A stretch of DNA of 64,000 bases from an uncultured virus (IMG/VR IMGVR_UViG_3300027708_001828) (IMGVR_UViG_3300027708_001828); one strand, 5' to 3'. Positions 41,291 through 55,743 are shown, counted from the stretch's first letter. The notes: generated from the sequence alone by a model not told the origin. Numbers and translations: made by a program.

Positions 41291-43333
41291 ATGTTAAAGA
41301 AACTCATCCTAAGCCCGTGGACTGCACTGCTGACTCTAGTGTTGGTAGTGGGCATACGCATTGCAGATCCCTCATTTGTTGAAAGCGTACGACTACGCTA
41401 TTTTGATACATTAATTGTAAACAAAGAACCAACATTTAATAATATTATCACGGTCAACATAGACGAAGCTAGTCTAGACAAATACGGCCAATGGCCACTA
41501 CCAAGGGTTAACTATGCTGAAATTATTGAAGACCTTTATCATCGTAATGCTGGCCTTGTTGTGCTTAACGTGCTCATGGCTGAGCGTGATCGTACTGGTG
41601 GAGATAGGGATCTGGCCTCCACTCTTAAACATTATCCGGTAATACTTCCTAGCGTTCCCAGTAATCAAACAAAGAATACACCACGTGTTCCAGGCAGTGC
41701 TGTACTAGCACCAGAATGGTTAGATCAAATTGTTCAGTATCCTGGACTTGTTGCCAACATCTCAAGTTTAGAAAATAGTGCGGCCGGTGTTGGTATTGTA
41801 AACACGCTACCAGAGATAGATGGTGTCAATCGTCGTATGCCTTTGATTGTGTCAGTTGACGGCAAACTTTATCCATCAATGAGTTTAGAAACTCTGCGTG
41901 TGGCCGCAGGTGACACAACATTCCAAGTTAAGTTGTTTGAAGGTGGCGTTGAGAAAATGCGTATCCCCAAGTTTGGGCCTGTGACTACAGATAATCTGGG
42001 GCGTGTTTGGATTGATTGGAGTCAACAAAATCGTAGTTTTAGTTTGATTAACTTACCCAAAGATTTAGAAGGTGCTGTTGTTATAGTAGGACCTACAGCC
42101 GCAGGTATCGGTAATCCGTTACCAACTAGCAAAGGCGCAATATGGCCTCATGATGTACAAGCCGCTGTTATTGGCACAATGATGAATGGAGTTGTTATAC
42201 AACGGCCTGATTGGGCAGACGGTGCAGAAATATTGGGCTTATTGACCGCAGGTATTTTATTATTATTTTTAACAAGGTGGACTTATGTTGGTATTGGCGC
42301 AGGTGTTGTTATTATTGGCTCTATTATTCCTCTATGTGGACTCGCATATAGCAGTGGCTTACAACTCGTGGATGCGACTGTTCCGGTCGGGGGCCTTGTT
42401 TTGGTTATGCTTCACGCTTATGGTGTTAAGTTTGTAAGTGAATACTTACAGAAACAAGCAATCAAGAAACAGTTTGCTGGCTATTGCAGTAAGGAAGTAG
42501 TCGAACTACTACAAAAAGATCCAGACTTGATCAAGCGTGGTGTACGTAAAGACGTAAGTGTCATGTTCAGTGATCTACGTGGCTTTACTCCTATTGGTGA
42601 ACATTACGGAGATGATGTTGCTGGCTTGGGCAAGTATATGAACGGATACATGGACAGCATTAGTCGTCCCATGCTAGATAATAATGGAATGATTATCAAG
42701 TACGTAGGCGATGCAAGTATGCACATACACGGTGCCCCTATTGAAGATCCTAATCACGCTAGAACAATAGTTGCTGTTGGACTTGAAATGCTAGACAAAG
42801 TAGACGAGTATACTAACATTATGGAAGCACAAGGATTGCCACCAGCCGCAATGGGTTGGGGTTGTAACTCAGGTATTGGCTTTATCGGTGAGATGGGTTC
42901 AACAGAACGACACAGCTATGACATCTTGGGTGACATGGTTTCAACTGCGGCACGACTAGAAGCACGTTGTAAAGCATATGGTGTATTGTGTATTATTGGT
43001 GCTGAAACATACAACCGTACTAAGGATGATTTCTTCTACTTGTATTTGGATAACTTACAACCAAAAGGTAAAACTGTAGCAGATGCTATCTATACAGCAT
43101 TACGAACCAAAGGCAACGACTACAGTAAAGAACTTGCCACACACAATAAGATGCATATCCTGTACAAAGAAAAACAATTTGATGCGGCTGCTATATTGTG
43201 TGGAGAATTGAAAGGCAAGTTTAGCGGACAAATGGACAAGTACTACAAAATGTGGATTGAACGCTGTGCGTTTATGAAACAGCAAGATCTAGGCGATGAT
43301 TGGAACGGTGAGTTTATTGCTCACGAGAAATAA
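41291..43333 (+). CDS. CHASE2-domain class III adenylate/guanylate cyclase
   Basis: GQWPLPR, DGVNRR, TMs, FSDLRGFT, KYVGD, AARLE. Confidence 0.92.
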   Translation: MLKKLILSPWTALLTLVLVVGIRIADPSFVESVRLRYFDTLIVNKEPTFNNIITVNIDEASLDKYGQWPLPRVNYAEIIEDLYHRNAGLVVLNVLMAERDRTGGDRDLASTLKHYPVILPSVPSNQTKNTPRVPGSAVLAPEWLDQIVQYPGLVANISSLENSAAGVGIVNTLPEIDGVNRRMPLIVSVDGKLYPSMSLETLRVAAGDTTFQVKLFEGGVEKMRIPKFGPVTTDNLGRVWIDWSQQNRSFSLINLPKDLEGAVVIVGPTAAGIGNPLPTSKGAIWPHDVQAAVIGTMMNGVVIQRPDWADGAEILGLLTAGILLLFLTRWTYVGIGAGVVIIGSIIPLCGLAYSSGLQLVDATVPVGGLVLVMLHAYGVKFVSEYLQKQAIKKQFAGYCSKEVVELLQKDPDLIKRGVRKDVSVMFSDLRGFTPIGEHYGDDVAGLGKYMNGYMDSISRPMLDNNGMIIKYVGDASMHIHGAPIEDPNHARTIVAVGLEMLDKVDEYTNIMEAQGLPPAAMGWGCNSGIGFIGEMGSTERHSYDILGDMVSTAARLEARCKAYGVLCIIGAETYNRTKDDFFYLYLDNLQPKGKTVADAIYTALRTKGNDYSKELATHNKMHILYKEKQFDAAAILCGELKGKFSGQMDKYYKMWIERCAFMKQQDLGDDWNGEFIAHEK

Positions 43334-44027
43334 GTTTTGCAAGTCCTAATAAACTAAAAAGTCTCAGCCACATATAACCAATATCAAATTCAAACCAGCG
43401 GCGACTCAGTTTAACGCTTGCTGGATTAAGATGATGGTTATTATGAAGTTCTTCACCGCCCACCACAATGCCCCAAGGAACAATGTTGCGACTACTATCA
43501 CGAGTAGTTCCGTTCTTGTAACCATACCAATGTCCTATACCGTTGATAACTCCAGCGGCCCAAAATGGAATCCATATCATTTGCACACCCCACACTACAA
43601 ATCCCCACGGTCCAAAGAACAATAGATCTATGATCAGCATTAGAAGAATACCGAGGCGGCTATGGGGTGTATAAATGTTACGCTCAATCCAATCGTCAGG
43701 AGTACCTACTCCAAACTTGTTGACCATGTCTGTGTCTTTACTTGCTAGATGATAAAGGCCTGCACCTTTGAAAAATACACGAGCGATGCCGTATACGTGC
43801 GGGCTATGCGGATCACCCGCATTATCACTAAATGCATGATGCTTACGATGTATAGCCACCCATTGTTTGGTTACCATACCAGTTGTAAGCCATAGCCATG
43901 CTCGCATGAAATGGCTTAGTATCGGGTTGAATGCGATTCCCTTGTGCGCTTGGCCTCTGTGTAAAAACAAAGTAACGGAAACGATAGTGATGTGTGTGAC
44001 TACAAGTGTGTATATAATTATGTTCAT
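43314..44027 (-). CDS. Fatty acid desaturase
   Basis: HRGQAH, HRKHH, HNNHH His boxes. Confidence 0.92.
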   Translation of the reverse strand: MNIIIYTLVVTHITIVSVTLFLHRGQAHKGIAFNPILSHFMRAWLWLTTGMVTKQWVAIHRKHHAFSDNAGDPHSPHVYGIARVFFKGAGLYHLASKDTDMVNKFGVGTPDDWIERNIYTPHSRLGILLMLIIDLLFFGPWGFVVWGVQMIWIPFWAAGVINGIGHWYGYKNGTTRDSSRNIVPWGIVVGGEELHNNHHLNPASVKLSRRWFEFDIGYMWLRLFSLLGLAKLISREQ

Positions 44028-45414: not shown

Positions 45415-45601
45415 TGCAGTTCACCTTGTGTCCTCGAGCAAATTGCTCTACTGGGTCCAACTTGACTAGCATACTACGGCCGTCACGATTGACAACTTTG
45501 AAACAGTCGCCATGTTTCCAGCCCAGTGCATCTATGTTTAATTCGGGGTCAAACTTGATGTACTCGGGCTCTAGGTCCCAGTCGTAATCGTAATGCCTCA
45601 T
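45407..45601 (-). CDS. Hypothetical protein
   Basis: Paralog of 589..786. Confidence 0.75.
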   Translation of the reverse strand: MRHYDYDWDLEPEYIKFDPELNIDALGWKHGDCFKVVNRDGRSMLVKLDPVEQFARGHKVNCNE

Positions 45602-45882
45602 TAATCTCTCCTTGCATCGTTCTTGCCGTCTGCACGGCTGATACGGTCTACATCTGGCCGTAAGCCGAGAGCATTTGATACAATAGTGTCAATGCGGATT
45701 ACATCATGGTTCATGGTTTTTACACGATTATCAAGTGCTGTGATAATACCAGCCATGCCCTTTACGCTACTAAGGACACCTGCCAGTAACAACTTGATCG
45801 TTAGATACACAAAATAGCCGCCTGCTAGTGCTGCCGCGACAGGAAACCCAAGGTCCCCGATGATTTTGAAAATTTCGCCCAT
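45601..45882 (-). CDS. Small membrane protein with GFPV motif
   Basis: Paralog of 786..1064. Confidence 0.7.
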   Translation of the reverse strand: MGEIFKIIGDLGFPVAAALAGGYFVYLTIKLLLAGVLSSVKGMAGIITALDNRVKTMNHDVIRIDTIVSNALGLRPDVDRISRADGKNDARRD

Positions 45883-45988
45883 TTCCGATTCGCTCCCGGT
45901 ATAAAAGTATTTATGCTATTTCTAGCCAAAATGCATTGCTATCTTGCTAGAAAGGATATATAATACTAACTGTACAAAGGAGAGCACT

Positions 45989-46096
45989 ATGCCGAGTCCT
46001 CGTAGAGTTTCGCAAATTTTAAAAGGTAAAAAACCACCTAGGCCAAAGACTGTAAAAGCTATGGCTAAACGGGTAGTCAGGAGAAAATCAAAATGA
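45989..46096 (+). CDS. Very basic micro-protein (35 aa)
   Basis: AAGGAG RBS; TTGCTA-17-TATAAT promoter upstream. Confidence 0.6.
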   Translation: MPSPRRVSQILKGKKPPRPKTVKAMAKRVVRRKSK

Positions 46097-46164
46097 CACA
46101 AGGTCGCGTAAAATCAGTCAAAGCTAGAGCCAAACGTGCAACTCGTAAAGCACGTAACAAGTAA
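46093..46164 (+). CDS. Very basic micro-protein (23 aa)
   Basis: ATGA overlap with upstream ORF; AGGAG RBS. Confidence 0.55.
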   Translation: MTQGRVKSVKARAKRATRKARNK

Positions 46165-46174
46165 TAGCAAAAGA

Positions 46175-46518
46175 ATTGTTGTACAAGCCTTAAAGTAAGG
46201 CATTCTGGACGCGGGTTCGACTCCCGCCAGGTCCACCATAAGCATATTAGGTCGTTGAGTTAAAAAGTCGCATGTGATGCGCTCAGACTAAAATAGTATG
46301 CTTTTGATGGGCCTGCCATGGTTTCGACAGGGTGAGATAGGATAAAGGTCAACACGTGGGGTCACGTAAAATACAAATAAAGTAAATGCAAAAGCAAATA
46401 CATTCGAGTATTTCCAAGTTCCTGTAACATTAGCTACTGCTAATGATGCAGAATTTGCAATCGCAGCCTAAGAAACTGCACTCGCGAGGTAGGACTTACC
46501 TTGTCATCAAAACAACCA
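46175..46518 (+). ncRNA. ssrA: Circularly permuted (two-piece) tmRNA
   Basis: T arm + CAGGTCCACCA (ends 46238) precedes GGGCCTG...TTCGAC (46309); G3-U pair; tag ORF 46388-46471 ends ANDAEFAIAA; outer ends approximate. Confidence 0.9.
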
Positions 46519-46545
46519 AAAAGGCACTTTCGAGTGCCTTTTTTA
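46519..46545 (+). terminator. Intrinsic terminator
   Basis: aaggcac-tttcga-gtgcctt-T run. Confidence 0.85.
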
Positions 46546-46620
46546 TTGACCAGTAAACAATTTGCATATATAATAGGGTACTGTGTAAAAACAGTCATTT
46601 TAATTAAAAGGAAGTAAAAC

Positions 46621-47073
46621 ATGAAGAAAATTGCAATCGCAACCCTATTGGCCCTAGCGGCCGCAACAGCCAGTGCTGTAGAAGTTGGCGTCAACGGATC
46701 GTACGATTACGGTTCACCAACCCAACGTCCAGGTGCAGGTATCACAATCGGTCAGAAATATGACAAGTTTGGTGTCACTGCTGGATTTGATCGTTACTCA
46801 AAAGGTACAGATCAAAACAAGTGGACACTGGTTGGTTCATATGATGTGTATTCAGTCGGTGCCGCAACGTTCGCAGTCAAAGCTGGTGCCGCATATTTGG
46901 ACAACTATGGTAATGTTGCTGATGGTTATGCTGGTCTAGTTGGCACAGGTGTCAGCTATGCAGTTGCTAAGAATGTTGCATTGACAGCAGACTATCGCTA
47001 TCAGTTCGGCCAGTCACGTGTTAACCAATTTGATGGCAACACAATTTCTACAGGCATCAAGGTCTCATTCTAA
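46621..47073 (+). CDS. Outer-membrane beta-barrel protein
   Basis: Signal peptide, amphipathic strands, C-terminal Phe. Confidence 0.85.
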   Translation: MKKIAIATLLALAAATASAVEVGVNGSYDYGSPTQRPGAGITIGQKYDKFGVTAGFDRYSKGTDQNKWTLVGSYDVYSVGAATFAVKAGAAYLDNYGNVADGYAGLVGTGVSYAVAKNVALTADYRYQFGQSRVNQFDGNTISTGIKVSF

Positions 47074-47094
47074 TTTTTAATTAGAAAAACATCA

Positions 47095-47116
47095 AGGGAC
47101 CTTAGGGTCCTTTTTT
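47095..47116 (+). terminator. Intrinsic terminator
   Basis: ggacc-ttag-ggtcc-T run. Confidence 0.8.
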
Positions 47117-47163
47117 GTTAATGGAAAATATTGTGGCGATTTTGCCACATTATCACTAGGTTC

Positions 47164-47192
47164 TTGACAAGTGATATAAATACATATATAAT
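47164..47192 (+). promoter_or_regulatory. sigma70 promoter P1 of tRNA region
   Basis: TTGACA-17-TATAAT. Confidence 0.85.
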
Positions 47193-47263
47193 AGAAGCTG
47201 TGTTAGAGATGCTTCGTTAAAAAAGTTTGTTGTCCAAAAACAACAAAAAGATTTACAAAGTAG

Positions 47264-47292
47264 TTGACAACAACGTCGAGAGGCGTTATAAT
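47264..47292 (+). promoter_or_regulatory. sigma70 promoter P2 of tRNA region
   Basis: TTGACA-17-TATAAT, exactly 100 bp after P1. Confidence 0.85.
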
Positions 47293-47351
47293 TAACACAT
47301 GAACTAGCAATTCCGCTAGTAAAAACAAAAAGGTTTAAAAGAGAAAACAAA

Positions 47352-47501
47352 ATGCAATCTTGCAATAGACATCATCAGTTTAATACGATGCCCAAACAGG
47401 TAGGCGTTATAGCCTCTTATTGGTCAGCGATTAACGGCGGAAGTCTGTCATTAGATCGTACACCAGAGATTACAAGGGTCCGGGAGGGCTGGGATGACTA
47501 G
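47352..47501 (+). CDS. Putative attenuator leader peptide (49 aa, all 20 amino acids)
   Basis: MQSCNRHHQFNTMPKQVGVIASYWSAINGGSLSLDRTPEITRVREGWDD; 3' end overlaps antiterminator. Confidence 0.7.
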   Translation: MQSCNRHHQFNTMPKQVGVIASYWSAINGGSLSLDRTPEITRVREGWDD

Positions 47502-47569
47502 GTAACAACTTAGAAACATTTCAAAACTTCAAGGACCCTAGGATTAAAACCCTGGGGTTTTTTGTTTTT
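47475..47569 (+). terminator. Attenuator: antiterminator 47475-47539 vs terminator 47533-47569
   Basis: AGGGTCC/GGACCCT competes with GGACCCTAGG/CCTGGGGTTT + T run. Confidence 0.75.
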
Positions 47570-47581
47570 AGGAAAGGAAAA

Positions 47582-47758
47582 ATGGAACAGATAGATTACG
47601 AAAAATTAAATCAACGCATTGTTGAACAGGCTTATGAAACTGCTTTTGGTCCTACATTGGATAAAGAACAGCTTCAAAAACTTATTCAAGATAAGTTTGA
47701 ACGTGCTAGAAAATATCACGAAGCGTTAGCGAAAGCACCGACGTTCAGTGTAAACTAG
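47582..47758 (+). CDS. Small hypothetical protein (58 aa)
   Basis: MEQIDYEKLNQRIVEQAYE...; AGGA RBS. Confidence 0.6.
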   Translation: MEQIDYEKLNQRIVEQAYETAFGPTLDKEQLQKLIQDKFERARKYHEALAKAPTFSVN

Positions 47759-47996
47759 TACAACGTGTGAAGATACCAGTAACGAGGACTGGGCCCTGCA
47801 CGTAAAACATGGGGCGAACGGGCGGCCTATCGGATGGAACTCCTCTTCTGGAGCTAAAAATGGTAGCGTATCGAAGCATTCTCGGGCCGATAGAGGCAAG
47901 TGGGTTCATCCATGTAGAATGCTTCGATACACACTTTCCAACACTACCTGAAATAGTGCTTGACATAGTCAACGGAGAGTGTTAAAATTAAAATCT

Positions 47997-48085
47997 GGAA
48001 GTGTGCGCTGAATTGGTTGAAGGCAACGGACTGTAAATCCGCCACATAAGAAACATTGTTGGTTCGAATCCAACCACTTCCACCA
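47997..48085 (+). tRNA. tRNA-Tyr(GTA)
   Basis: Cloverleaf, long variable arm, CCA. Confidence 0.9.
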
Positions 48086-48090
48086 AATTT

Positions 48091-48165
48091 GGTCCTGTCA
48101 TATAGTGGTTATTATACCGGCCTGTCTAGTCGGATATCGGGGTTCGATTCCCCGCAGGATCGCCA
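48091..48165 (+). tRNA. tRNA-Asp(GTC)
   Basis: Cloverleaf, CCA. Confidence 0.88.
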
Positions 48166-48173
48166 AGTATATT

Positions 48174-48250
48174 CGGAGTGTAGCGCAGTCTGGTAGCGCA
48201 CCTGGTTTGGGACCAGGGGGTCCAAGGTTCGAATCCTTGTACTCCGACCA
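48174..48250 (+). tRNA. tRNA-Pro(TGG)
   Basis: Cloverleaf, CCA. Confidence 0.95.
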
Positions 48251-48257
48251 ATTTTAT

Positions 48258-48332
48258 GCACGGTTCGTCTATCGGTTAGGACACTGGCCTTTCACGTCAG
48301 TAAGACGGGTTCGATTCCCGTACCGTGTACCA
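48258..48332 (+). tRNA. tRNA-Glu(TTC)
   Basis: Cloverleaf, CCA. Confidence 0.92.
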
Positions 48333-48334
48333 AG

Positions 48335-48525
48335 AACGTTCCGCTTTGTTAGCGGATACTGTGACCCGCAGGATGGGAAGTGAGGTGACTCTCAAGGGTG
48401 GTTCTAGTCTTACCGAACTAGCGTTAGCAACACGATAGCGGTCCCTGTCGGGAAGCGGGTGGAGGGCATGCGTGATGGACCTAGTCCTGATGTGCTATAA
48501 TTACCGCCGAGGGATGTCAGAGCTT
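48335..48525 (+). ncRNA. Unidentified GC-rich structured RNA candidate
   Basis: Non-coding spacer with several hairpins. Confidence 0.45.
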
Positions 48526-48527
48526 TT

Positions 48528-48601
48528 CCTCTTGTAGTTAAATGGTATAACAGTCGGCTGATAACCGGCCATTACAAGTTCGATTCTTGTCGAGAGGACC
48601 A
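48528..48601 (+). tRNA. tRNA-Ile(GAT)
   Basis: Cloverleaf, CCA. Confidence 0.9.
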
Positions 48602-48629
48602 ATTTTTAACAAAGAACAAAGGAAATGTT

Positions 48630-49007
48630 ATGTCATATAGTGACTGGAATAACTCTGCTAAAATAGCAGACATGGTAGGTAAAACTTTTACAAGTGTAAA
48701 AGCAGATGGCAACGAGTTGGTGTTTGAAAACAGCGTGGATCGTTATGTGTTCTTTCATGCACAAGATTGTTGCGAACATGTGCGCATTGAAGACATCGCG
48801 GGCGACTTGAGCGACCTAGAAGGTGAACCTTTAGTAATAGCAGACGAAGTTGAAGGTGAAAGCCCAGCTGACTTTGAAGCATACGAAAGTTACACTTGGA
48901 CATTTTACAAGTTCGCTACTCGCAAGGGCTATGTGGACGTGAGATGGCTAGGAGAAAGCAACGGGTACTACAGCGAAAGCGTAAACCTAGGATACGAAAC
49001 AGTTTAA
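48630..49007 (+). CDS. Hypothetical acidic phage protein
   Basis: HAQDCCEHV...WLGESNGYYSE. Confidence 0.8.
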   Translation: MSYSDWNNSAKIADMVGKTFTSVKADGNELVFENSVDRYVFFHAQDCCEHVRIEDIAGDLSDLEGEPLVIADEVEGESPADFEAYESYTWTFYKFATRKGYVDVRWLGESNGYYSESVNLGYETV

Positions 49008-49057
49008 TTTTATAAAAGGAGATCTGTCATGACCAGTGACAAGAGTGATAAGATGAT

Positions 49058-49132
49058 GGGGGTATAACTTAACGGCTAAAGTAGCGGGCTTTTAACCCGT
49101 AAATCAGAGTTCGATTCTCTGTGCCCCTACCA
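49058..49132 (+). tRNA. tRNA-Lys(TTT)
   Basis: Cloverleaf, CCA. Confidence 0.9.
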
Positions 49133-49307
49133 TATAAAAACATACTGGATCTTCTAGTGGACTAAGACGCTGGCAAATAGGTCGGTGAACGTGGTGTTCA
49201 AATCCCACTCTAGTGTGTTTCTATATGGTATTACTTGTAGATAAATCGAGATTGTTTTTTAATCTCTTTAATCTTTTTCCTATACTTGAAACGGATGTAT
49301 AAAGATT

Positions 49308-50111
49308 TTAAAAATGCAAACATTTAATCTTCTCAGCTAGATCTTTGGCTATTAGATCGTGTCCGGATTGCGTAAAATGCCATTGGGGCAAGTAGTCAGC
49401 ATTTGTTATTTCTTCCAAAGATTTAGCAGTTAGTTTAAAGTCATAAAACTCTTTTAACAACTGCTGTTGGATATCATTTAACAAGATTGGATCTTTTTCA
49501 TTCACTATTAGATCGACCTCTTGCCCTTTTAGGTGCGGTTCTTCCAAAGGTTGATTTAACTTAGTAGGCGAGATACGTAACAGATAACAGGGTATATTTT
49601 TAGAACGAAGTAGTCTTACAGCATATAGCACAGACACATAGTCTTCAACCATCGTAAGCGATTCGTTAAAAAATTCAAGAAAGAATTCTTGCATGATATT
49701 GTTTTGTCTACTATTTAAAAAATGAGTCGGCCAGTTTGGTTGTAGAACTGCACTGTTTACTAGGTTATTTGAATAATTCACTAGTAGTCGATTATGAGTA
49801 GTCATTTGAATCACTGCTACAGTATCATCGTAGTGGTTTTCAGGAAATTTTAAAATAGCTCGCATAGCTATTTCTTTATTGGAAATACCTCGTAGGGCAA
49901 TATTTTCAATCTCTGCATTGAGTAGATTGCCTACCAATGATGGGTAACAATATTGTTTATTATATTCGTTTATTTGTTCATCGGATGCAGACCTAGTAGC
50001 TTTACCAGCTTGAAACACATTCATAGCGGTGTATTGGGGGACGAATTTTTCTTCCCATAGCTCTGTACCAGCGGTAATACTGCATCCTGCGAAAACGATT
50101 TTTTTAATCAT
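49308..50111 (-). CDS. SGNH-hydrolase-like hypothetical protein
   Basis: GCSITAG, GISN, HF...GH. Confidence 0.55.
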   Translation of the reverse strand: MIKKIVFAGCSITAGTELWEEKFVPQYTAMNVFQAGKATRSASDEQINEYNKQYCYPSLVGNLLNAEIENIALRGISNKEIAMRAILKFPENHYDDTVAVIQMTTHNRLLVNYSNNLVNSAVLQPNWPTHFLNSRQNNIMQEFFLEFFNESLTMVEDYVSVLYAVRLLRSKNIPCYLLRISPTKLNQPLEEPHLKGQEVDLIVNEKDPILLNDIQQQLLKEFYDFKLTAKSLEEITNADYLPQWHFTQSGHDLIAKDLAEKIKCLHF

Positions 50112-50138
50112 AGTAAAATATTTATTATAATTTTTTAC

Positions 50139-50214
50139 AGTAGAGTAGCATAGCGGCTAATGCACCACCTTCATACGGTGTTTATCGTGGGTTCGAGTCC
50201 CACCTCTACTACCA
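50139..50214 (+). tRNA. tRNA-CAT (elongator Met or Ile2)
   Basis: Cloverleaf, CCA; identity not resolvable by eye. Confidence 0.85.
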
Positions 50215-50218
50215 AATT

Positions 50219-50294
50219 GGAAGTTTAGCTCAGCTGGTAGAGCGTCTGCCTTACACGCAGAATGTCGGCGGTTCGATCCCGTCAACTTCCACCA
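50219..50294 (+). tRNA. tRNA-Val(TAC)
   Basis: Cloverleaf, CCA. Confidence 0.95.
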
Positions 50295-50300
50295 AACTGT

Positions 50301-50374
50301 TGGGGGTTAGTTAAATGGTATAACCGCGGATTTTGATTCCGCTATTAAAGGTTCGATTCCTTTACCCTCTGCCA
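50301..50374 (+). tRNA. tRNA-Gln(TTG)
   Basis: Cloverleaf, CCA. Confidence 0.9.
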
Positions 50375-50380
50375 ATCAAT

Positions 50381-50456
50381 GGTGTCTTTAGTGTAGTGGC
50401 CTGCACCCTGCTCTGTGAAAGCGGTAGTACCGGATCGATACCGGTAAGGCACCCCA
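50381..50456 (+). tRNA. tRNA-His(GTG)
   Basis: G-1/C73, CCA; atypical ATCGA T loop. Confidence 0.85.
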
Positions 50457-50461
50457 AACAT

Positions 50462-50537
50462 GCTACTTTAGCTGATGTGGTCATAGCGGCGGTCTGAAGA
50501 ACCGTTGAACCAGGTTCGATTCCTGGAGGTAGCACCA
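50462..50537 (+). tRNA. tRNA-Phe(GAA)
   Basis: Cloverleaf, CCA. Confidence 0.9.
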
Positions 50538-50540
50538 AGT

Positions 50541-51044
50541 TTTGTAAGTGTTAGCAAGAGAAAGTCACGCTGTCTAGGTTTCTTCGAAGGACCGAAACAG
50601 TAGAAGGTGATGGGTTCGACACCCACTAGGTCCATTGAGGCGACTAAACTGGACAAGTATTCCAAGTAACTTATCCTGACCCTGCCGGCTCAATTACAAG
50701 GGAAAATGGTTGCGATGAGAGGGACGCAACAACTTACAAATTCAACAGACCCCCGCTTTGTCAGGTTGTGCGGTAAACAATCTGACACTTACTAAGTAAT
50801 TGTATTAGTAAAAGATTTAAGGTGTGATAGTGTTTCGCAAGAACTTTGAGGATGCCGGAAGCGTTCAAAGAGGATAGTTATAGACTATAACACTGATTGG
50901 CAGATAGAGTTGGGTATTGTTTTCAGCATTGACCCAACAGTCGATCACGCATTCCATGTTAGGCGAGACCAAAAGAGCAGATCTGAAAAGTCTGGGTCGC
51001 CACTGCTAACGCAAAACCAAAACTCTGTGAATCTTTTACTAATA
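50541..51044 (+). ncRNA. Large structured non-coding region (two stem-closed domains)
   Basis: Closing stems 50541/50740 and 50803/51044; many internal hairpins. Confidence 0.55.
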
Positions 51045-51051
51045 TCTTTAT

Positions 51052-51127
51052 GCGGGCGTAGCTCAGTTGGTAGAGCATTACCTTGCCAAGGTAAATGTCG
51101 AGAGTTCGAACCTCTTCGCCCGCTCCA
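51052..51127 (+). tRNA. tRNA-Gly(GCC)
   Basis: Cloverleaf, CCA. Confidence 0.95.
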
Positions 51128-51181
51128 AATTATGGCTCCTAGACTTGTTCACATAGTGTCCCCTGGGAGTTTTTCTTTTAT

Positions 51182-51271
51182 GCCCGGGTGGCGAAATTGG
51201 TAGACGCACTTCTCTCAAAAGGAAGAAGGAAAAACACCTAGTTGTGAGTTCGAATCTCATCCCGGGCACCA
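51182..51271 (+). tRNA. tRNA-Leu(CAA)
   Basis: Cloverleaf, long variable arm. Confidence 0.9.
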
Positions 51272-51273
51272 AT

Positions 51274-51365
51274 GCCAGCGAGACTTGACAGTCAGAGAGG
51301 TTTTATAAACCTTTTAGCGCCAGATTAGCGTTCTTGAGAGGGTTTGATTCCCTCCGCTGGTACCA
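51274..51365 (+). tRNA. Atypical tRNA with TAT anticodon (Ile?)
   Basis: 7-bp acceptor, tiny D arm, long variable arm, TTTGA T loop, CCA. Confidence 0.7.
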
Positions 51366-51366
51366 C

Positions 51367-51440
51367 GCTCTTATAATTTAATGGTAGAATGCCTCCTTGG
51401 TATGGAGGCAATGATGGTTCGATTCCCTCTAAGAGCACCA
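51367..51440 (+). tRNA. tRNA-Thr(GGT)
   Basis: Cloverleaf, CCA. Confidence 0.88.
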
Positions 51441-51445
51441 AACAC

Positions 51446-51520
51446 CTGGCTATAGTACAATGGATAGTACAATGAGCTTCTACCTCATGAATGTGGGTTC
51501 GATTCCTGCTAGCCGGACCA
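51446..51520 (+). tRNA. tRNA-Arg(TCT)
   Basis: Cloverleaf, CCA. Confidence 0.9.
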
Positions 51521-51528
51521 ATCAATAT

Positions 51529-51603
51529 CGGCCATTGGTGAAATGGATATCATCTCTGTCTTCGAAACAGAGGGTGTGGGTTCGATTCCTGCATGGCCGG
51601 CCA
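51529..51603 (+). tRNA. tRNA-Arg(TCG)
   Basis: Cloverleaf, CCA. Confidence 0.9.
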
Positions 51604-51632
51604 CGATAAGTCAAATATATTTCACAAAGATG

Positions 51633-51661
51633 TTGACACACAGCATCAGATGTTGTATAAT
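51633..51661 (+). promoter_or_regulatory. Internal sigma70 promoter for second half of tRNA array
   Basis: TTGACA-17-TATAAT. Confidence 0.85.
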
Positions 51662-51714
51662 AGTTGTATACTAGGCAACTGGTACAATAGTTCTTTAAAA
51701 AATTAAAAGCAAAT

Positions 51715-51797
51715 GCCCCGATGGTGGAATTGGTAGACACGCTGGTCTTAGAAGCCAGTGCGCAAGCGTCCGAGTTCGAGTCTCGGTTGGGGCACCA
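51715..51797 (+). tRNA. tRNA-Leu(TAG)
   Basis: Cloverleaf, CCA. Confidence 0.93.
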
Positions 51798-51987
51798 TAT
51801 AAATGCTTTCTGAGTAGCTACAGTGGAACACCGAAATACCGGTCAATGTCGACCATGTACCGGGACCGGCCATGAAGAGTGGGGCTACCGTGGATTCAAG
51901 CGCCACAGAGAGCACCTATATGATCGAGTCTTGGACACGCAGACTTTAAAACGAGGTGGAAGTAGGTGGAAGCCCTACACCTAATAT

Positions 51988-52061
51988 CGCGGGATAGAGT
52001 AACGGTAATTCAGAAGTCTCATAAGCTTCAGATCTTGGTTCGATTCCAGGTCCCGCTACCA
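51988..52061 (+). tRNA. tRNA-Met(CAT), initiator-like
   Basis: CGCGGG start with 1-72 mismatch; lacks the three G-C anticodon-stem pairs. Confidence 0.82.
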
Positions 52062-52067
52062 AATAGA

Positions 52068-52157
52068 GGAAATGTGGCAGAGTCCGGTTTATTGCAACAG
52101 TCTTGAAAACTGTCGAGTCGAAAGGCTCCGTGAGTTCGAATCTCACCGTTTCCGCCA
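52068..52157 (+). tRNA. tRNA-Ser(TGA)
   Basis: Cloverleaf, long variable arm. Confidence 0.93.
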
Positions 52158-52163
52158 AGTTGA

Positions 52164-52237
52164 GTCTCATTAGTATAATGGCAGTATAGCGGTCTCCAAA
52201 ACCGTTGGTCGGGGTTCGAGTCCCTGGTGGGACGCCA
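52164..52237 (+). tRNA. tRNA-Trp(CCA)
   Basis: Cloverleaf, CCA. Confidence 0.9.
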
Positions 52238-52247
52238 AATGTCAATT

Positions 52248-52331
52248 GCGAGAGTGGAGAAATGGTATACTCAAGAGACTTAAAATCTCTCGTCGAAAGG
52301 CATGCGGGTTCGAGTCCCGCTTCTCGCACCA
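52248..52331 (+). tRNA. tRNA-Leu(TAA)
   Basis: Cloverleaf, CCA. Confidence 0.92.
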
Positions 52332-52350
52332 TTCATAAAGGAGATGTAGT

Positions 52351-52494
52351 ATGTCAAAAAGAGAAGATGTTCTAAACAAGGCATACGGCAACGTGCCTCG
52401 TGAAATTGGATTTAGCATAGTATGGGATTTCCTGCCAACTTGGCGCGGTGTGCGATACTACTGGCATAAATTAATACGTAAGATAACAAGATAA
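52351..52494 (+). CDS. Small hypothetical protein (47 aa)
   Basis: MSKREDVLNKAYGNVPREIG...; AGGAG RBS. Confidence 0.55.
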   Translation: MSKREDVLNKAYGNVPREIGFSIVWDFLPTWRGVRYYWHKLIRKITR

Positions 52495-52500
52495 GCAAAA

Positions 52501-52588
52501 GGATAGTTGGCCGAGTGGTTAAGGCAACGGTTTGCTAAACCGTCGTTCCGAAAGGGGCGCATAGGTTCGAATCCTATACTATCCGCCA
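52501..52588 (+). tRNA. tRNA-Ser(GCT)
   Basis: Cloverleaf, long variable arm. Confidence 0.93.
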
Positions 52589-52635
52589 GTACATAGGAGA
52601 TATACTCTCCGCCATTTTTTAAAAAGAGAAAAACT

Positions 52636-52857
52636 ATGATGAAACCAGGCAAGACGTTCAATTTGAACAAACAAACCAAACGCTTTATGGCCACGTTTGT
52701 GAACGCAGAAGATCGTAATCATTTCAAACGCATGATGATCGATGCACAACTGTGCAGTGAAGTTGTTATCAAGAGTGCACCGCGTGACAAGAATGCACCG
52801 CGTGGTACTGCCAACTATCAAACTAACGATACAGGTACAGCAAGTACCGCAGTATAA
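52636..52857 (+). CDS. Hypothetical protein
   Basis: 73-aa ORF, coding-like codon use. Confidence 0.7.
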   Translation: MMKPGKTFNLNKQTKRFMATFVNAEDRNHFKRMMIDAQLCSEVVIKSAPRDKNAPRGTANYQTNDTGTASTAV

Positions 52858-52866
52858 AAGCATTAT

Positions 52867-52942
52867 TCCGCAGTAGCTCAGTCGGTAGAGTAGATGACTG
52901 TTAATCATTTGGTCGGTGGTTCGAGCCCACCCTGTGGAGCCA
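52867..52942 (+). tRNA. tRNA-Asn(GTT)
   Basis: Cloverleaf, CCA. Confidence 0.93.
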
Positions 52943-52947
52943 GGATT

Positions 52948-53023
52948 GGGGGATTAGCTCATTTGGGAGAGCACCTGCTTTGCAAGCAGGGGGTGGTCGG
53001 TTCGATCCCGACATCCTCCACCA
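52948..53023 (+). tRNA. tRNA-Ala(TGC)
   Basis: Cloverleaf, G3-U70, CCA. Confidence 0.95.
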
Positions 53024-53075
53024 AGATCACCATTACACACGGTGTACAATAGGATAAGTAGTGTGTAACAAATTT

Positions 53076-53151
53076 GCCGGTTTAGCTCATTTGGTAGAGC
53101 GCCGCTCTTGTAAGGCGGATGTGGTCAGTTCGATTCCGACAACCGGCACCA
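53076..53151 (+). tRNA. tRNA-Thr(TGT)
   Basis: Cloverleaf, CCA. Confidence 0.92.
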
Positions 53152-53541
53152 AGTTTAAACATATTGAAATCTGTAAAAAGATCAGGTTTGGTATCCCAGT
53201 CACTATGATAGGCATAGCCCATATACTCAATACACCACAATATGTTTATTCGTTTCCCGGGACTACTGGCCGTAACCCAAGTAGCGTAATTACAGTAACG
53301 ATAACTGTACGGTGCATTGGATCTACCGCAAGGCCCGCTATATGGGCGACTTGAGAAATCACAAAGGCAGAGCACTAACTGTCTATATGGAAACATGCGG
53401 TACGGACACCAAGCCTAGTCTAGGGCATTCGGGAGAGTGTAACTAGACACTTTAATCAAACACACTTAGCCTAGCTATAAGCTAGGTTGCAAGGACCACA
53501 CACCATCTTAGAAAAAAGTGTTAAGTGTGTTTGATTAAAGT

Positions 53542-53615
53542 GCGGGATTAGTTTAATGGTAAAACAGCAGATTTCCAATCTTCGGTCAAGAGTTCGATTC
53601 TCTTATCCCGCTCCA
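53542..53615 (+). tRNA. tRNA-Gly(TCC)
   Basis: Cloverleaf, CCA. Confidence 0.9.
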
Positions 53616-53635
53616 ATTTTTAAAAAGGAAAACAA

Positions 53636-53896
53636 ATGAAAGCAAGTCATATTTTGGTAGCCACACGTGAACAAGCTGATGCAATCTTGGCTGAAGCAAC
53701 TGCATTGAATTTTGGATCACTTGCACAGCAGTACAGCTCATGCCCCAGTAAAGCACGTGGTGGCGACTTGGGCGATTTCGGCCCAGGTCAAATGGTCAAG
53801 CCGTTTGAAGATGCTACTGTGGCAACAGCAGTTGGTGCTATTAGCCAGCCAGTGCAAACACAATTTGGTTTTCACTTGATCCATCGCACTGGATGA
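53636..53896 (+). CDS. ppiC: Parvulin-type peptidyl-prolyl isomerase
   Basis: ASHILV, SSCPS..RGGDLG, MVKPFE, TQFGFHLI. Confidence 0.93.
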   Translation: MKASHILVATREQADAILAEATALNFGSLAQQYSSCPSKARGGDLGDFGPGQMVKPFEDATVATAVGAISQPVQTQFGFHLIHRTG

Positions 53897-54453
53897 TAAT
53901 AGATTCAAACGATCTTTGCCGCAAGTATGATTACAGTAGTTTGATCTCAGCTACCGAAAACGACACAGCCATAGGCATTATCAAAAGTATAATCGAAAGC
54001 GGCAACTACTTTAAAAACTCGCCTCCGTTTCAAACACAGGAAAATTTGTTTGGCAGATCCGAGGCAGTTTGGTTGAAATATCGTATGACATTTTTGACCA
54101 GTGTGTTTTTATATTTGGGACACGAAGCCAGAGTCAGCAACATGATGGCTTGGAGTTTTATGACCAATTTGAGCACAGTAGAAGATCGTGACAAATATTG
54201 GCATCATCATGACAAACATTCGGGCAAAAGCCTAAGCGGAATCATGTACTTGCACATCCCCGACGATGTGAAGGATTTTGACACATGTGGCACCGAACTG
54301 GCACCCAATGGGCCAGAGTCTCCTGGCAAATTTTTTGTACGACCCAGTTACTGCTCGTGGATTATCTATCCCAGCAACATTTGGCATAGACCAGGTATTG
54401 TGCAAAGTGACAAATATCGATTTATTTTAGCCGCAGACGTTGACTACGAGTAA
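53893..54453 (+). CDS. 2OG-Fe(II) oxygenase-like protein
   Basis: WHHH, LSGIMYL, YPS.IWH, R. Confidence 0.6.
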   Translation: MIIDSNDLCRKYDYSSLISATENDTAIGIIKSIIESGNYFKNSPPFQTQENLFGRSEAVWLKYRMTFLTSVFLYLGHEARVSNMMAWSFMTNLSTVEDRDKYWHHHDKHSGKSLSGIMYLHIPDDVKDFDTCGTELAPNGPESPGKFFVRPSYCSWIIYPSNIWHRPGIVQSDKYRFILAADVDYE

Positions 54454-54489
54454 AATAGATGTTATAATAACGTTTTAACGGAGATATCA

Positions 54490-54723
54490 ATGCGAAATAC
54501 AACACTTAGCCGTGGTCCAGAAATTGACAGAGAACTGTGCTGTAGCAAAATGGGGACTGGTATGTATGATCTTGTTCTGGCAGCCACAGCTCGAGCAAGA
54601 GAGATCCGTCGTCAGCATAGAAGCAGTGAGTCATATGAGCATATCTATCCAATAGTAACTGCTATACTGGAAATCCAACAAGGCAAGATTGATCCAAAAG
54701 AGTATCTCAAACGAGTACGTTAA
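54490..54723 (+). CDS. rpoZ: RNA polymerase omega subunit-like protein
   Basis: YDLVLAATARAREI...IVTAILEIQQGKI. Confidence 0.75.
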   Translation: MRNTTLSRGPEIDRELCCSKMGTGMYDLVLAATARAREIRRQHRSSESYEHIYPIVTAILEIQQGKIDPKEYLKRVR

Positions 54724-54728
54724 TTCGT

Positions 54729-54806
54729 GCAACGGTGGCAGAGCGGCCCAATGCACCGGATTGCAAATCCGTAAAACCGGGGGTTCAAATCCCTCCCGTT
54801 GCTCCA
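54729..54806 (+). tRNA. tRNA-Cys(GCA)
   Basis: Cloverleaf, U73, CCA. Confidence 0.9.
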
Positions 54807-54816
54807 TAAATAACAC

Positions 54817-54845
54817 TTGACATCTATGGTAATAGGTGTTATAAT
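54817..54845 (+). promoter_or_regulatory. sigma70-type promoter
   Basis: TTGACA-17-TATAAT. Confidence 0.8.
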
Positions 54846-54872
54846 TTTATTTTAAGAAATCAAGGAGCAGAA

Positions 54873-55115
54873 ATGCGCGAATACGAAAGCATCCAAGGCG
54901 ACAATTTAGAGGAAGCGGATCAAGCACAGCTATTGTCTACTGCTCTAAGTGCAGACGCTGTGGCCAAGATCAGAGCCAGTATCCCTACTGGGCCCAGTTT
55001 GAGTCATTGCAACGAATGCGGAGAAGAAATTCCGCTTGCTAGGCAACGAGCATTGCGTGGATGCATGACCTGTATCGATTGTCAAACACTTAGCGAAAGA
55101 AAGAAGTTAGGATAA
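54873..55115 (+). CDS. DksA/TraR C4 zinc-finger protein
   Basis: EEADQA; CNECGEEIP.AR...CIDCQ. Confidence 0.9.
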   Translation: MREYESIQGDNLEEADQAQLLSTALSADAVAKIRASIPTGPSLSHCNECGEEIPLARQRALRGCMTCIDCQTLSERKKLG

Positions 55116-55282
55116 TGAAAATCCAATTTACAAAAGAAACTATGCCCGACGAACTGTACAATACGCTCCTACAGCACTTTGTAAACGAAGCAGTTGGACT
55201 AGGGGTAGAAGTAAACAAGTTTACCCAGTTTGATAATTGGGTAATTGAATGTACCGTGGATGCAAAAGAATCGGTGCATTAA
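55115..55282 (+). CDS. Small hypothetical protein (55 aa)
   Basis: TAATG overlaps at both ends. Confidence 0.6.
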   Translation: MKIQFTKETMPDELYNTLLQHFVNEAVGLGVEVNKFTQFDNWVIECTVDAKESVH

Positions 55283-55743
55283 TGCCCAAGTGTTATCAAT
55301 TAATCGGAGTTCCCTGCGCAGGAAAAAGTACTTGGACTAAGAGCCAGCAATGGATCTTAGGTATGGAGTATGTAAGTACTGACCATCATGTAGAAGTCTA
55401 TGCTGAACAGCAAGGTAAGACTTATTCAGAAGTGTTTAAGGATTACATGCCTAGAGCAGTTGAACTAATGGCACAAGAAGTCGTAGATGCTAGAACAGCA
55501 GGACGTGATGTGATTTGGGATCAAACTAGTACTACAGTTGCTAGCCGTGCTAGGAAGTTTAATATGCTTCCTGACTATTGGCACATCGCTGTGGTGTTTC
55601 CGACTCCTGAAATCGCAGTATTGAAAGAACGTTTGGCTAGCCGTCCAGGCAAAGAAGTTCCTTGGGAAGTTGTACAAGGAATGATCGATAATTTTGAATA
55701 CCCTACTAACGAAGAGGGTTTCAAAGAAATTTGGAGGGTATAA
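55282..55743 (+). CDS. P-loop kinase (AAA_33/PNK-like)
   Basis: GVPCAGKST, DQT, R...R lid. Confidence 0.8.
   Translation: MPKCYQLIGVPCAGKSTWTKSQQWILGMEYVSTDHHVEVYAEQQGKTYSEVFKDYMPRAVELMAQEVVDARTAGRDVIWDQTSTTVASRARKFNMLPDYWHIAVVFPTPEIAVLKERLASRPGKEVPWEVVQGMIDNFEYPTNEEGFKEIWRV

Follow-up and report, generated by a model that had tools for sequence, protein, structure and literature searches.

A leader reading frame with all 20 amino acids and a competing hairpin and terminator in front of tRNA genes in uncultured freshwater jumbo phages

In the genome of an uncultured freshwater jumbo phage, a short open reading frame (ORF) that contains all 20 amino acids stands in front of an array of tRNA genes, and its last codons form one arm of a hairpin that competes with an intrinsic terminator. 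The stretch analyzed here (IMG/VR IMGVR_UViG_3300027708_001828; 64,000 nucleotides [nt], hereafter “the window”) had been annotated beforehand from its sequence alone, and this initial annotation proposed that the element is a leader-peptide attenuator that responds to tRNA shortage. Having compared the region with its relatives, we consider it probable that the element works as a transcription attenuator, mediated by the ribosome and responsive to decoding capacity in general, with a leader selected to hold every amino acid. The features of the switch, in the coordinates of the window, are as follows.

47164..47192, + strand: promoter P1, TTGACA-17-TATAAT, 12/12 by sigma-70 consensus score
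47226..47247, + strand: small hairpin GTTGT..ACAAC plus an A-tract, between P1 and P2, conserved in the relatives' alignment
47264..47292, + strand: promoter P2, TTGACA-17-TATAAT, 12/12, predicted start near 47299
47303..47320, + strand: 5′-terminal hairpin of the leader transcript, −7.7 kcal/mol, z −5.4
47339..47344, + strand: weak Shine-Dalgarno (SD)-like AAGAGA in the A-rich leader, read from the sequence
47352..47501, + strand: leader ORF, ATG start, 49 codons, all 20 amino acids, 36 distinct codons
47475..47539, + strand: antiterminator hairpin, whose 5′ arm is the last nine ORF codons, with the stop (47499–47501) at its top; −29.3 kcal/mol, z −5.9
47531..47570, + strand: intrinsic terminator, stem 47531–47562 and U-run to 47570; −16.2 kcal/mol

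The set of 20 amino acids in the window's leader is complete at codon 39, its Arg residues use four different codons (AGA, CGT, AGG, and CGG), and ATA, TTA, and CCC also occur; every count that the initial annotation gave for this ORF, including the 49 codons and the 36 different ones, proved correct. All 20 amino acids are also found in 2.1% of random 49-mers with this phage's composition, in 220 of 10,712 (2.05%) 49-amino-acid (aa) windows taken from the phage's long ORFs, and in nine of the 206 mechanical 40- to 60-aa ORFs of the window. Seen in a single sequence, complete content is thus a 2%–4% chance event, and therefore a lead rather than a finding. It is the relatives that carry the case, and only once they are compared does the content lie far beyond chance.

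The first three homologous leaders came from loci around the neighboring DUF7448 gene, and two invariant DNA words yielded 44 and 108 further IMG/VR stretches. An nhmmer profile built from 34 distinct sequences matched 156 of 234 sources (the promoter module yields a second nhmmer match); the ORF core was covered in 137 of these, and 17 partial matches were excluded. The ORF is intact in 136 of the 137 loci, which gave 70 distinct peptides or, after L206 (start lost) was dropped, 69 peptides of 43–53 residues. Any two of these 69 distinct ORFs are at least 21% identical (median 59%). When a peptide profile (34 of the 70 peptides) was searched against 5.8 billion proteins, 424 clusters were found at E ≤ 0.001, and the 120 of them that were listed are all unnamed or “hypothetical,” with no Pfam domain. 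The leader element is thus a large family, found in uncultured freshwater jumbo phages.

All 20 amino acids are present in 63 of the 69 distinct leaders from IMG/VR; the six exceptions lack Cys (four), Val (one), or Lys (one). Among the 120 listed of the 424 database clusters, 98 contain all 20 amino acids, 20 contain 19, and two contain 18, and Cys is the missing residue in 18 of the 22 incomplete ones. When residues were shuffled within alignment columns, the complete set was found on average in 25.2 sequences (maximum 37), and none of 5000 shuffles reached the observed 63. Tree-aware simulations, in which each column was evolved along the DNA tree with its number of changes and its residue repertoire kept, gave a mean of 19.1 (maximum 53; 0 of 2000 reached 63), and those rooted on an observed sequence with all 20 gave a mean of 21.7 (maximum 50; 0 of 1500). 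The excess over shuffles and simulations arises because a residue lost at one site reappears at another: Cys, which occurs exactly once in 55 of the 69 leaders, is spread over 11 alignment columns, Tyr (once in 57) over 10, and His (once in 62) over seven. As a control, a neighboring family of 48- to 58-aa proteins from the same genomes contains only 14–18 types of amino acid, and the complete set is absent from all 40 of its distinct members. In 56 of the 69 leaders, the set is already complete upstream of the stem. The amino-acid composition of the leader is thus under selection.

That the ORF is translated we infer from this composition and from the ratio of nonsynonymous to synonymous polymorphism (pN/pS), which is 0.47 over codons 2–40 in the 36 of 69 sequences that align without indels, a value that fits a translated frame whose sequence is loosely constrained. 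Pfam and PHROG profile searches with the 49-aa product returned no family match, and its Atlas matches fall below 0.9 and involve unnamed clusters only. AlphaFold modeled the peptide with a mean pLDDT of 57 and a pTM of 0.13; with no confident fold, the model gives no sign of a folded protein. The leader's value on a scale resembling the codon adaptation index is 0.593, versus 0.754 ± 0.055.

The initial annotation had described a long imperfect hairpin built from the last codons and the stop, and an intrinsic terminator whose left arm is sequestered by it. The hairpin folds exactly in this way and at the energy given above (AGGGUCC/GGACCCU, GGAG/CUUC, UGGGAUG/CAUUUCA, and CUAGGU/ACUUAG), and the 5′ arm of the terminator overlaps the 3′ arm of the hairpin, the shared letters being ACCCU. 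Below, A denotes the 5′ arm of the hairpin, B its 3′ base, which is also the 5′ arm of the terminator, and C the other arm of the terminator. In a joint fold of the hairpin and terminator segments, the A:B hairpin wins. Local hairpins exist within the ORF, none of which pairs with arm A, and the whole leader transcript folds with a z of −5.4.

Conservation of the switch was counted in 69 distinct sequences, from the DRTPE codons through the U-run. In the MAFFT alignments the conserved stems were offset by one column, and pairs were therefore counted by scripts from sequence anchors. Of the 69 sequences, 67 form the base helix GGGUCC:GGACCC, and the pair that flanks it is A-U in 44, G-C in 18, G-U in six, and A-C in one. 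On average, the hairpin has a free energy of −24.3 kcal/mol versus −14.6 kcal/mol for the terminator. All 56 distinct hairpins fold with z below −2, as do 53 of the 56 (in six sequence classes) after the outer 8 nt have been stripped from each side. RNAalifold, which was run on 57 of the 69, recovered only the terminator, in which one pair varies (U-G/C-G/U-A). In 63 of the 69 sequences, the first base of the stop codon is 1–5 nt upstream of the final paired base in the 5′ arm. Indels shift the frame, and the C termini of the leaders therefore differ (RVRE, QGSR, PGSQ); the letters of the stem and the position of the stop are nevertheless retained, and such frame-shifted tails with a kept stem are the signature of an ORF end that is constrained as RNA. 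Across the relatives, then, ORF length and full amino-acid coverage persist despite divergence of the peptide, and the competing stems are kept as well, so that, as an architecture, translation-coupled attenuation by way of a leader with all 20 amino acids is well supported.

The same design recurs in leaders that are not related to this family. Among the DUF7448 loci without a profile match (75 of 80), we collected the distinct ATG-initiated ORFs of 30–65 codons that lie in the 1300 nt preceding the first tRNA on the same strand (n = 46). A terminator follows within 110 nt in eight of these 46. Four of the eight contain all 20 amino acids (39–46 codons), two contain 19 (36 and 41 codons), and two contain 16–17; by comparison, none of the 38 small ORFs without a terminator has the complete set (hypergeometric P ∼ 4 × 10⁻⁴). 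Five of these leaders (L029, L025, L010, L024, and L061) have no sequence in common with the main family, yet once the 3′ arm of the terminator is left out of the fold, its 5′ arm pairs in all five with the final 15–28 nt of the ORF, through letters that differ from leader to leader. Two of the unrelated leaders are apparently leaderless, with a −10 hexamer 3–7 nt before the ATG.

The 5′ part of the element is also conserved. Both promoters had been reported as perfect sigma-70 promoters, and both do match at 12 of 12 positions. An equivalent of P2, the leader promoter, scoring at least 11/12 is found in 55 of 59 distinct upstream regions of relatives, and an equivalent of P1, upstream of the leader promoter and again at least 11/12, in 52 of 59. 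The hairpin and A-tract between the two promoters are possibly an UP-like element or binding site. In 56 of 59 relatives, the 5′-terminal hairpin of the transcript is also found with a z below −2, its sequence taking 43 distinct forms. The leader ATG at 47352 lies 60 nt past the −10 hexamer of P2, and throughout the family a conserved A-rich AAGAGAAAACAAA stands before the conserved ATG.

The mechanism that we propose would work as follows. The tandem strong promoters would start a transcript of ∼260 nt, on which ribosomes would translate the 43- to 53-codon ORF whose last codons and stop constitute arm A of the long hairpin, B at the 3′ base of this hairpin doubling as the 5′ arm of the terminator (B:C). 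A ribosome that reaches the stop on time would cover A, and transcription would end: the footprint of a ribosome at the stop falls short of the terminator stem, which is ∼30 nt downstream, and therefore B would be free to pair with C. If, instead, a ribosome were held at a codon upstream of A, or had not loaded, the stronger A:B hairpin would form first and block the terminator, and RNA polymerase would continue past it, through the gene for a small protein and a conserved structured RNA to the first part of the array of tRNAs. With every amino acid represented, usually by a single residue, a delay in decoding any of the 20 should open the switch, which would make it a general gauge of charged-tRNA supply and not of one amino acid. 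We infer both the direction of control and the signal sensed, which could be tRNA cleavage, starvation, or general slowing. A terminator placed only a few bases past a gene reportedly undergoes repression by the ribosome and regains its activity as the distance grows (PMC4824070), and the spacing of leader and terminator here fits that effect.

What lies behind the terminator is summarized by four features of the window, the first three of which were not part of the initial annotation.

47582..47758, + strand: 58-codon ORF for a helical protein, preceded by a good SD (AGGAAAGGA); first gene past the terminator (ORF listing)
about 47776..47930, + strand: conserved structured RNA of ∼155 nt, between the switch and the tRNAs (RNAalifold)
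47960..47988, + strand: promoter, 11/12 with extended TG, 9 nt before the first tRNA (consensus score)
47997..54806, + strand: tRNA array of 28 tRNAs, 20 isotypes, and 27 distinct anticodons, with ORFs and further promoters (51633 and 54440) in between

The array was counted as predicted, with 28 tRNAs for all 20 amino acids, and the separate promoter that had been placed at 51633 is a 12/12 match. tRNAs were listed with ARAGORN for 43 of the first 44 loci. In all 63 distinct downstream regions, a same-strand tRNA is found 424–1177 nt past the leader ATG, and in 49 of the 63 the interval from the terminator to the first tRNA is free of promoters scoring at least 11/12. A homologous ORF of ∼50 codons starts 13–19 nt past the U-run in 42 of the 63 relatives (products of 48–58 aa); the 58-aa protein of the window has no Pfam or PHROG family match.

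The structured RNA, found in 61 of the 63 regions, has 34 pairs, 22 of them with compensatory changes (RNAalifold, 14 sequences). The loops AACGAGG and GCACNUAAAACA are conserved, and CGGGCGGC does not vary. An Rfam cmscan search gave no match at E ≤ 1 for 47776–47930, and none of the known RNAs that we considered (RNase P, T-box, 6S, GOLLD, and ROOL) was supported as an identity for it. In one relative (L107), the apical insert of this RNA resembles a tRNA T-arm.

Several points weigh against the attenuator as proposed. The ribosome binding site of the leader (AAGAGA) is weak, as had been stated from the outset. A trp-style 1:2 hairpin is not evident, and therefore an untranslated leader would give read-through. 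The complete amino-acid set is not absolute, as six of 69 leaders and 22 of the 120 listed database relatives lack one or two residues, mostly Cys. In eight of the 69, the sole Val codon is within the stem, and the Glu codon of the invariant DRTPE, the only one in most leaders, is 10–13 nt before the stem in 67 of 69; Val (in those eight) and Glu may thus not be sensed in a simple model. Conservation of DRTPEI and FNTMPKQ is well above what composition would need, although it was partly forced by the search patterns. The leader of the window covers 25 of the 27 array anticodons by wobble, which 0.3% of control windows reach, yet 13% of those control windows that contain all 20 amino acids (n = 31) match it; coverage of isoacceptors is therefore only weakly above expectation given the complete set. 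Similarly, leaders average 36.8 distinct codons versus 33.3 expected (68 of 69 are above expectation), an excess that is confounded by the kinship of the sequences and by the stem letters.

Other points concern the link to the array. Leaders without Cys (four records, three distinct leaders) still have tRNA-Cys in their arrays, and therefore the content of a leader does not correspond one to one to that of its array. In 14 of the 63 distinct relatives, including the window, a promoter scoring at least 11/12 stands between the terminator and the first tRNA, and given the near-consensus promoters at 47960, 51633, and 54440, most tRNAs of the window could be made without read-through. The switch could thus gate only part of the array's transcription in this window; in 49 of the 63 relatives, no such promoter intervenes. 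Further leaders were sought behind the array promoters at 51633 and 54817, and none was found. The interpretation given in the initial annotation, a general sensor of tRNA shortage, is partly supported: the relatives bear out its architecture and complete content, whereas the array promoters, the modest isoacceptor coverage, and the tRNA-Cys of Cys-less leaders weaken it. RNA-library contigs identical to the window cover 47210–47631 (X6), with the terminator bridged by 47379–47631, and another (X8, 47482–47735) also bridges it, although ends and levels cannot be read from such contigs and gaps in their cover are uninformative. A contig is also found at 47058–47208, upstream of P1, and DNA carry-over or read-through from upstream is therefore possible.

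Three other explanations of the element have to be weighed. If it were an ordinary small early gene, the 49-aa peptide itself would be functional (e.g., as a host-takeover microprotein), the hairpin and terminator would do no more than end and stabilize its short mRNA, and the complete amino-acid set would be a side effect. The strong conservation of DRTPEI, FNTMPKQxG, and an invariant Trp among the leaders would be natural for such a gene, as would a pN/pS below 1, the prediction of a protein by gene callers in 424 clusters, and the possession of its own strong promoters and terminator. It would not explain why single-copy Cys, Tyr, and His shift over 7–11 positions, why complete sets are more frequent than in every tree-aware simulation, or why they recur in unrelated 39- to 46-codon leaders before tRNAs. 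Nor does it sit well with a tail that changes frame while the stem letters stay, with a stop in the hairpin top in 63 of 69 sequences, or with a peptide that has no confident fold and no Pfam, PHROG, or Atlas lead, and we regard a plain early gene as quite unlikely. A purely RNA-based function is less plausible still: the terminated ∼260-nt transcript would act mainly in trans, like rnTrpL, with the ORF secondary. Strong nucleotide conservation (including synonymous sites in parts of the ORF), a stable 5′ hairpin together with a terminator, as in many small regulatory RNAs, and the z of −5.4 for the whole transcript agree with this, and small RNAs derived from attenuators are known (PMC6614838, in its available text). 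However, a function of the RNA alone cannot select amino-acid composition or keep a frame open in 136 of 137 loci. We consider it very improbable as the main role, although it would be compatible with attenuation.

The third explanation accepts a translation-coupled switch and gives it another output or polarity. Its target could be the small protein, the structured RNA, or the stability of the transcript, with the tRNAs as passengers, or it could be a timing device that is open early, before ribosomes load, and closed later. Such a switch would accommodate the presence behind it of the structured RNA (61 of 63 relatives) and of the small ORF (42 of 63), the separate promoters of the window's tRNAs, a default fold that gives read-through, and a leader content that does not track the array. 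Against this, same-strand tRNAs are present in 63 of 63 regions, with no strong promoter in between in 49, and a leader with all 20 amino acids points to decoding supply, which tRNAs would restore most directly. A switch of this kind is, in our judgment, unlikely. The general decoding-capacity attenuator remains the reading that we prefer. We hold a stronger form of it more tentatively, at slightly less than an even chance: that the leader is a cis-acting gauge that opens an operon of tRNAs and noncoding RNA upon any shortage of charged tRNA (owing to shut-off, starvation, or an anticodon nuclease), that it evolved several times from unrelated sequences, and that attenuators of this kind are a new class, playing in phages the part of the stringent response.

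Some details of the surroundings should be noted. A 265,680-bp IMG/VR contig contains an identical stretch, and the nearest record (G001) is identical over 47000–48100. No match was found by blastn of 46600–48000 against 50,697 phage records, and tblastn of the leader peptide against cultured phages gave matches at chance level only (E ≥ 2). Judged by a neighboring 680-aa protein that is adenylate/guanylate-cyclase-like (41291–43333, +), the nearest cultured relatives are Methylophilales phage Melnitz and Pelagibacter phage HTVC008M, which share it at 36%–45% identity (45% for Melnitz). Melnitz has four scattered tRNAs and no array, and therefore a cultured model was not found. A fatty-acid desaturase domain protein (43314–44027, −; Pfam E 8 × 10⁻¹⁴) adjoins the cyclase-like gene.

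Closer to the leader is a transfer-messenger RNA (tmRNA) of the permuted betaproteobacterial type (46126–46545, +; tag peptide AKANTFEYFQVPVTLATANDAEFAIAA), and a phage tmRNA is also present in the relatives L107, L116, and L118. Next to it is the gene for a 150-aa protein (46621–47073, +) with a signal-peptide-like start and weak, cut-off-level matches to OmpA_membrane and Porin_2 (E 9 × 10⁻⁵ to 3 × 10⁻⁴); the product may be a phage-encoded small outer-membrane beta-barrel, and its gene, upstream of the leader promoters, ends at its own terminator. Within the array, 51274–51365 (+) was called by ARAGORN as a 92-nt “tRNA-Ile(tat)” and by Rfam as tRNA-Sec-like (30.6 bits, below threshold), and this odd gene recurs in L091, L097, L115, and L122. 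In the relatives L094, L119, and L123, a tRNA-Arg(TCT) stands apart from the array behind the switch, immediately ahead of the leader promoter. At the array end, small ORFs (54874–55116, +, and 54491–54724, +) follow consensus promoters; one of them, with two Cys pairs, presumably resembles a DksA/TraR-type zinc finger (judged by eye), and the other has what we take to be a resemblance to an RNA polymerase omega-like helix.

Textbook attenuators sense one or a few amino acids, and a leader with all 20 that is wired to tRNAs would, if true, be a different use of the same logic. A virus would have general, demand-driven control of its decoding capacity, which would help to explain the timing and dosage of the tRNA arrays of large phages (where codon usage and evasion of defense are debated), and the sensor would link such arrays to host defenses that cleave tRNAs. 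As a part, it would also be small and portable and could report when any charged tRNA becomes scarce. Selection on composition, in which residues move and are never lost, is unusual in itself. Judged on abstracts and titles, the literature holds no published all-amino-acid leader and no attenuator before phage tRNA genes that we could find. A cmscan search of 45500–55500 against Rfam at E ≤ 1 returned the tmRNA, tRNAs, and weak chance matches elsewhere only, with nothing at 47150–47990 and neither a leader family nor a T-box riboswitch in the region.

The closest known systems are the leader-peptide attenuators of amino-acid operons in Escherichia coli and Salmonella (trpL, hisL, leuL, pheL, thrL, ilvL). 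As in trpL and hisL, a promoter-proximal short ORF is present, translation of which would select between an antiterminator and an intrinsic terminator, and the stop and last codons lie inside the 5′ arm of the antiterminator, ∼60 nt from stop to U-run. Unlike those, the phage leader has no runs of regulatory codons and contains all 20 residues (C, Y, H, and W mostly once), no 1:2 hairpin is evident, and the genes behind the switch are tRNAs, a structured RNA, and a small ORF rather than biosynthetic enzymes. Multivalent attenuators exist (the ilvGMEDA leader for Ile/Leu/Val and the thr leader for Thr/Ile), in which a single leader senses several amino acids by mixed codons, as is proposed here; they cover two or three amino acids with repeated codons, whereas the phage leader has the complete set, usually in single copy.

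Leader ORFs that sense translation inhibitors (ermCL, the cat leaders, bmrB-bmrCD, vmlR, and toiL-topAI) are similar in that slowing of a ribosome on a short ORF remodels the RNA and opens downstream expression, and some of them respond to many translation stresses. They differ in relying on specific arrest peptides or drugs and in controlling resistance genes, and we know of none reported to be constrained to contain all amino acids. With T-box RNAs and RelA, gene expression likewise depends on whether tRNAs are charged. However, a T-box reads one uncharged tRNA through RNA–RNA contact and RelA is a protein that acts in trans, whereas the proposed phage reader is a translating ribosome in cis. 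In mechanism, the proposed switch is a leader-peptide attenuator; it is new in its content, with all 20 amino acids, and in its target, the tRNA genes.

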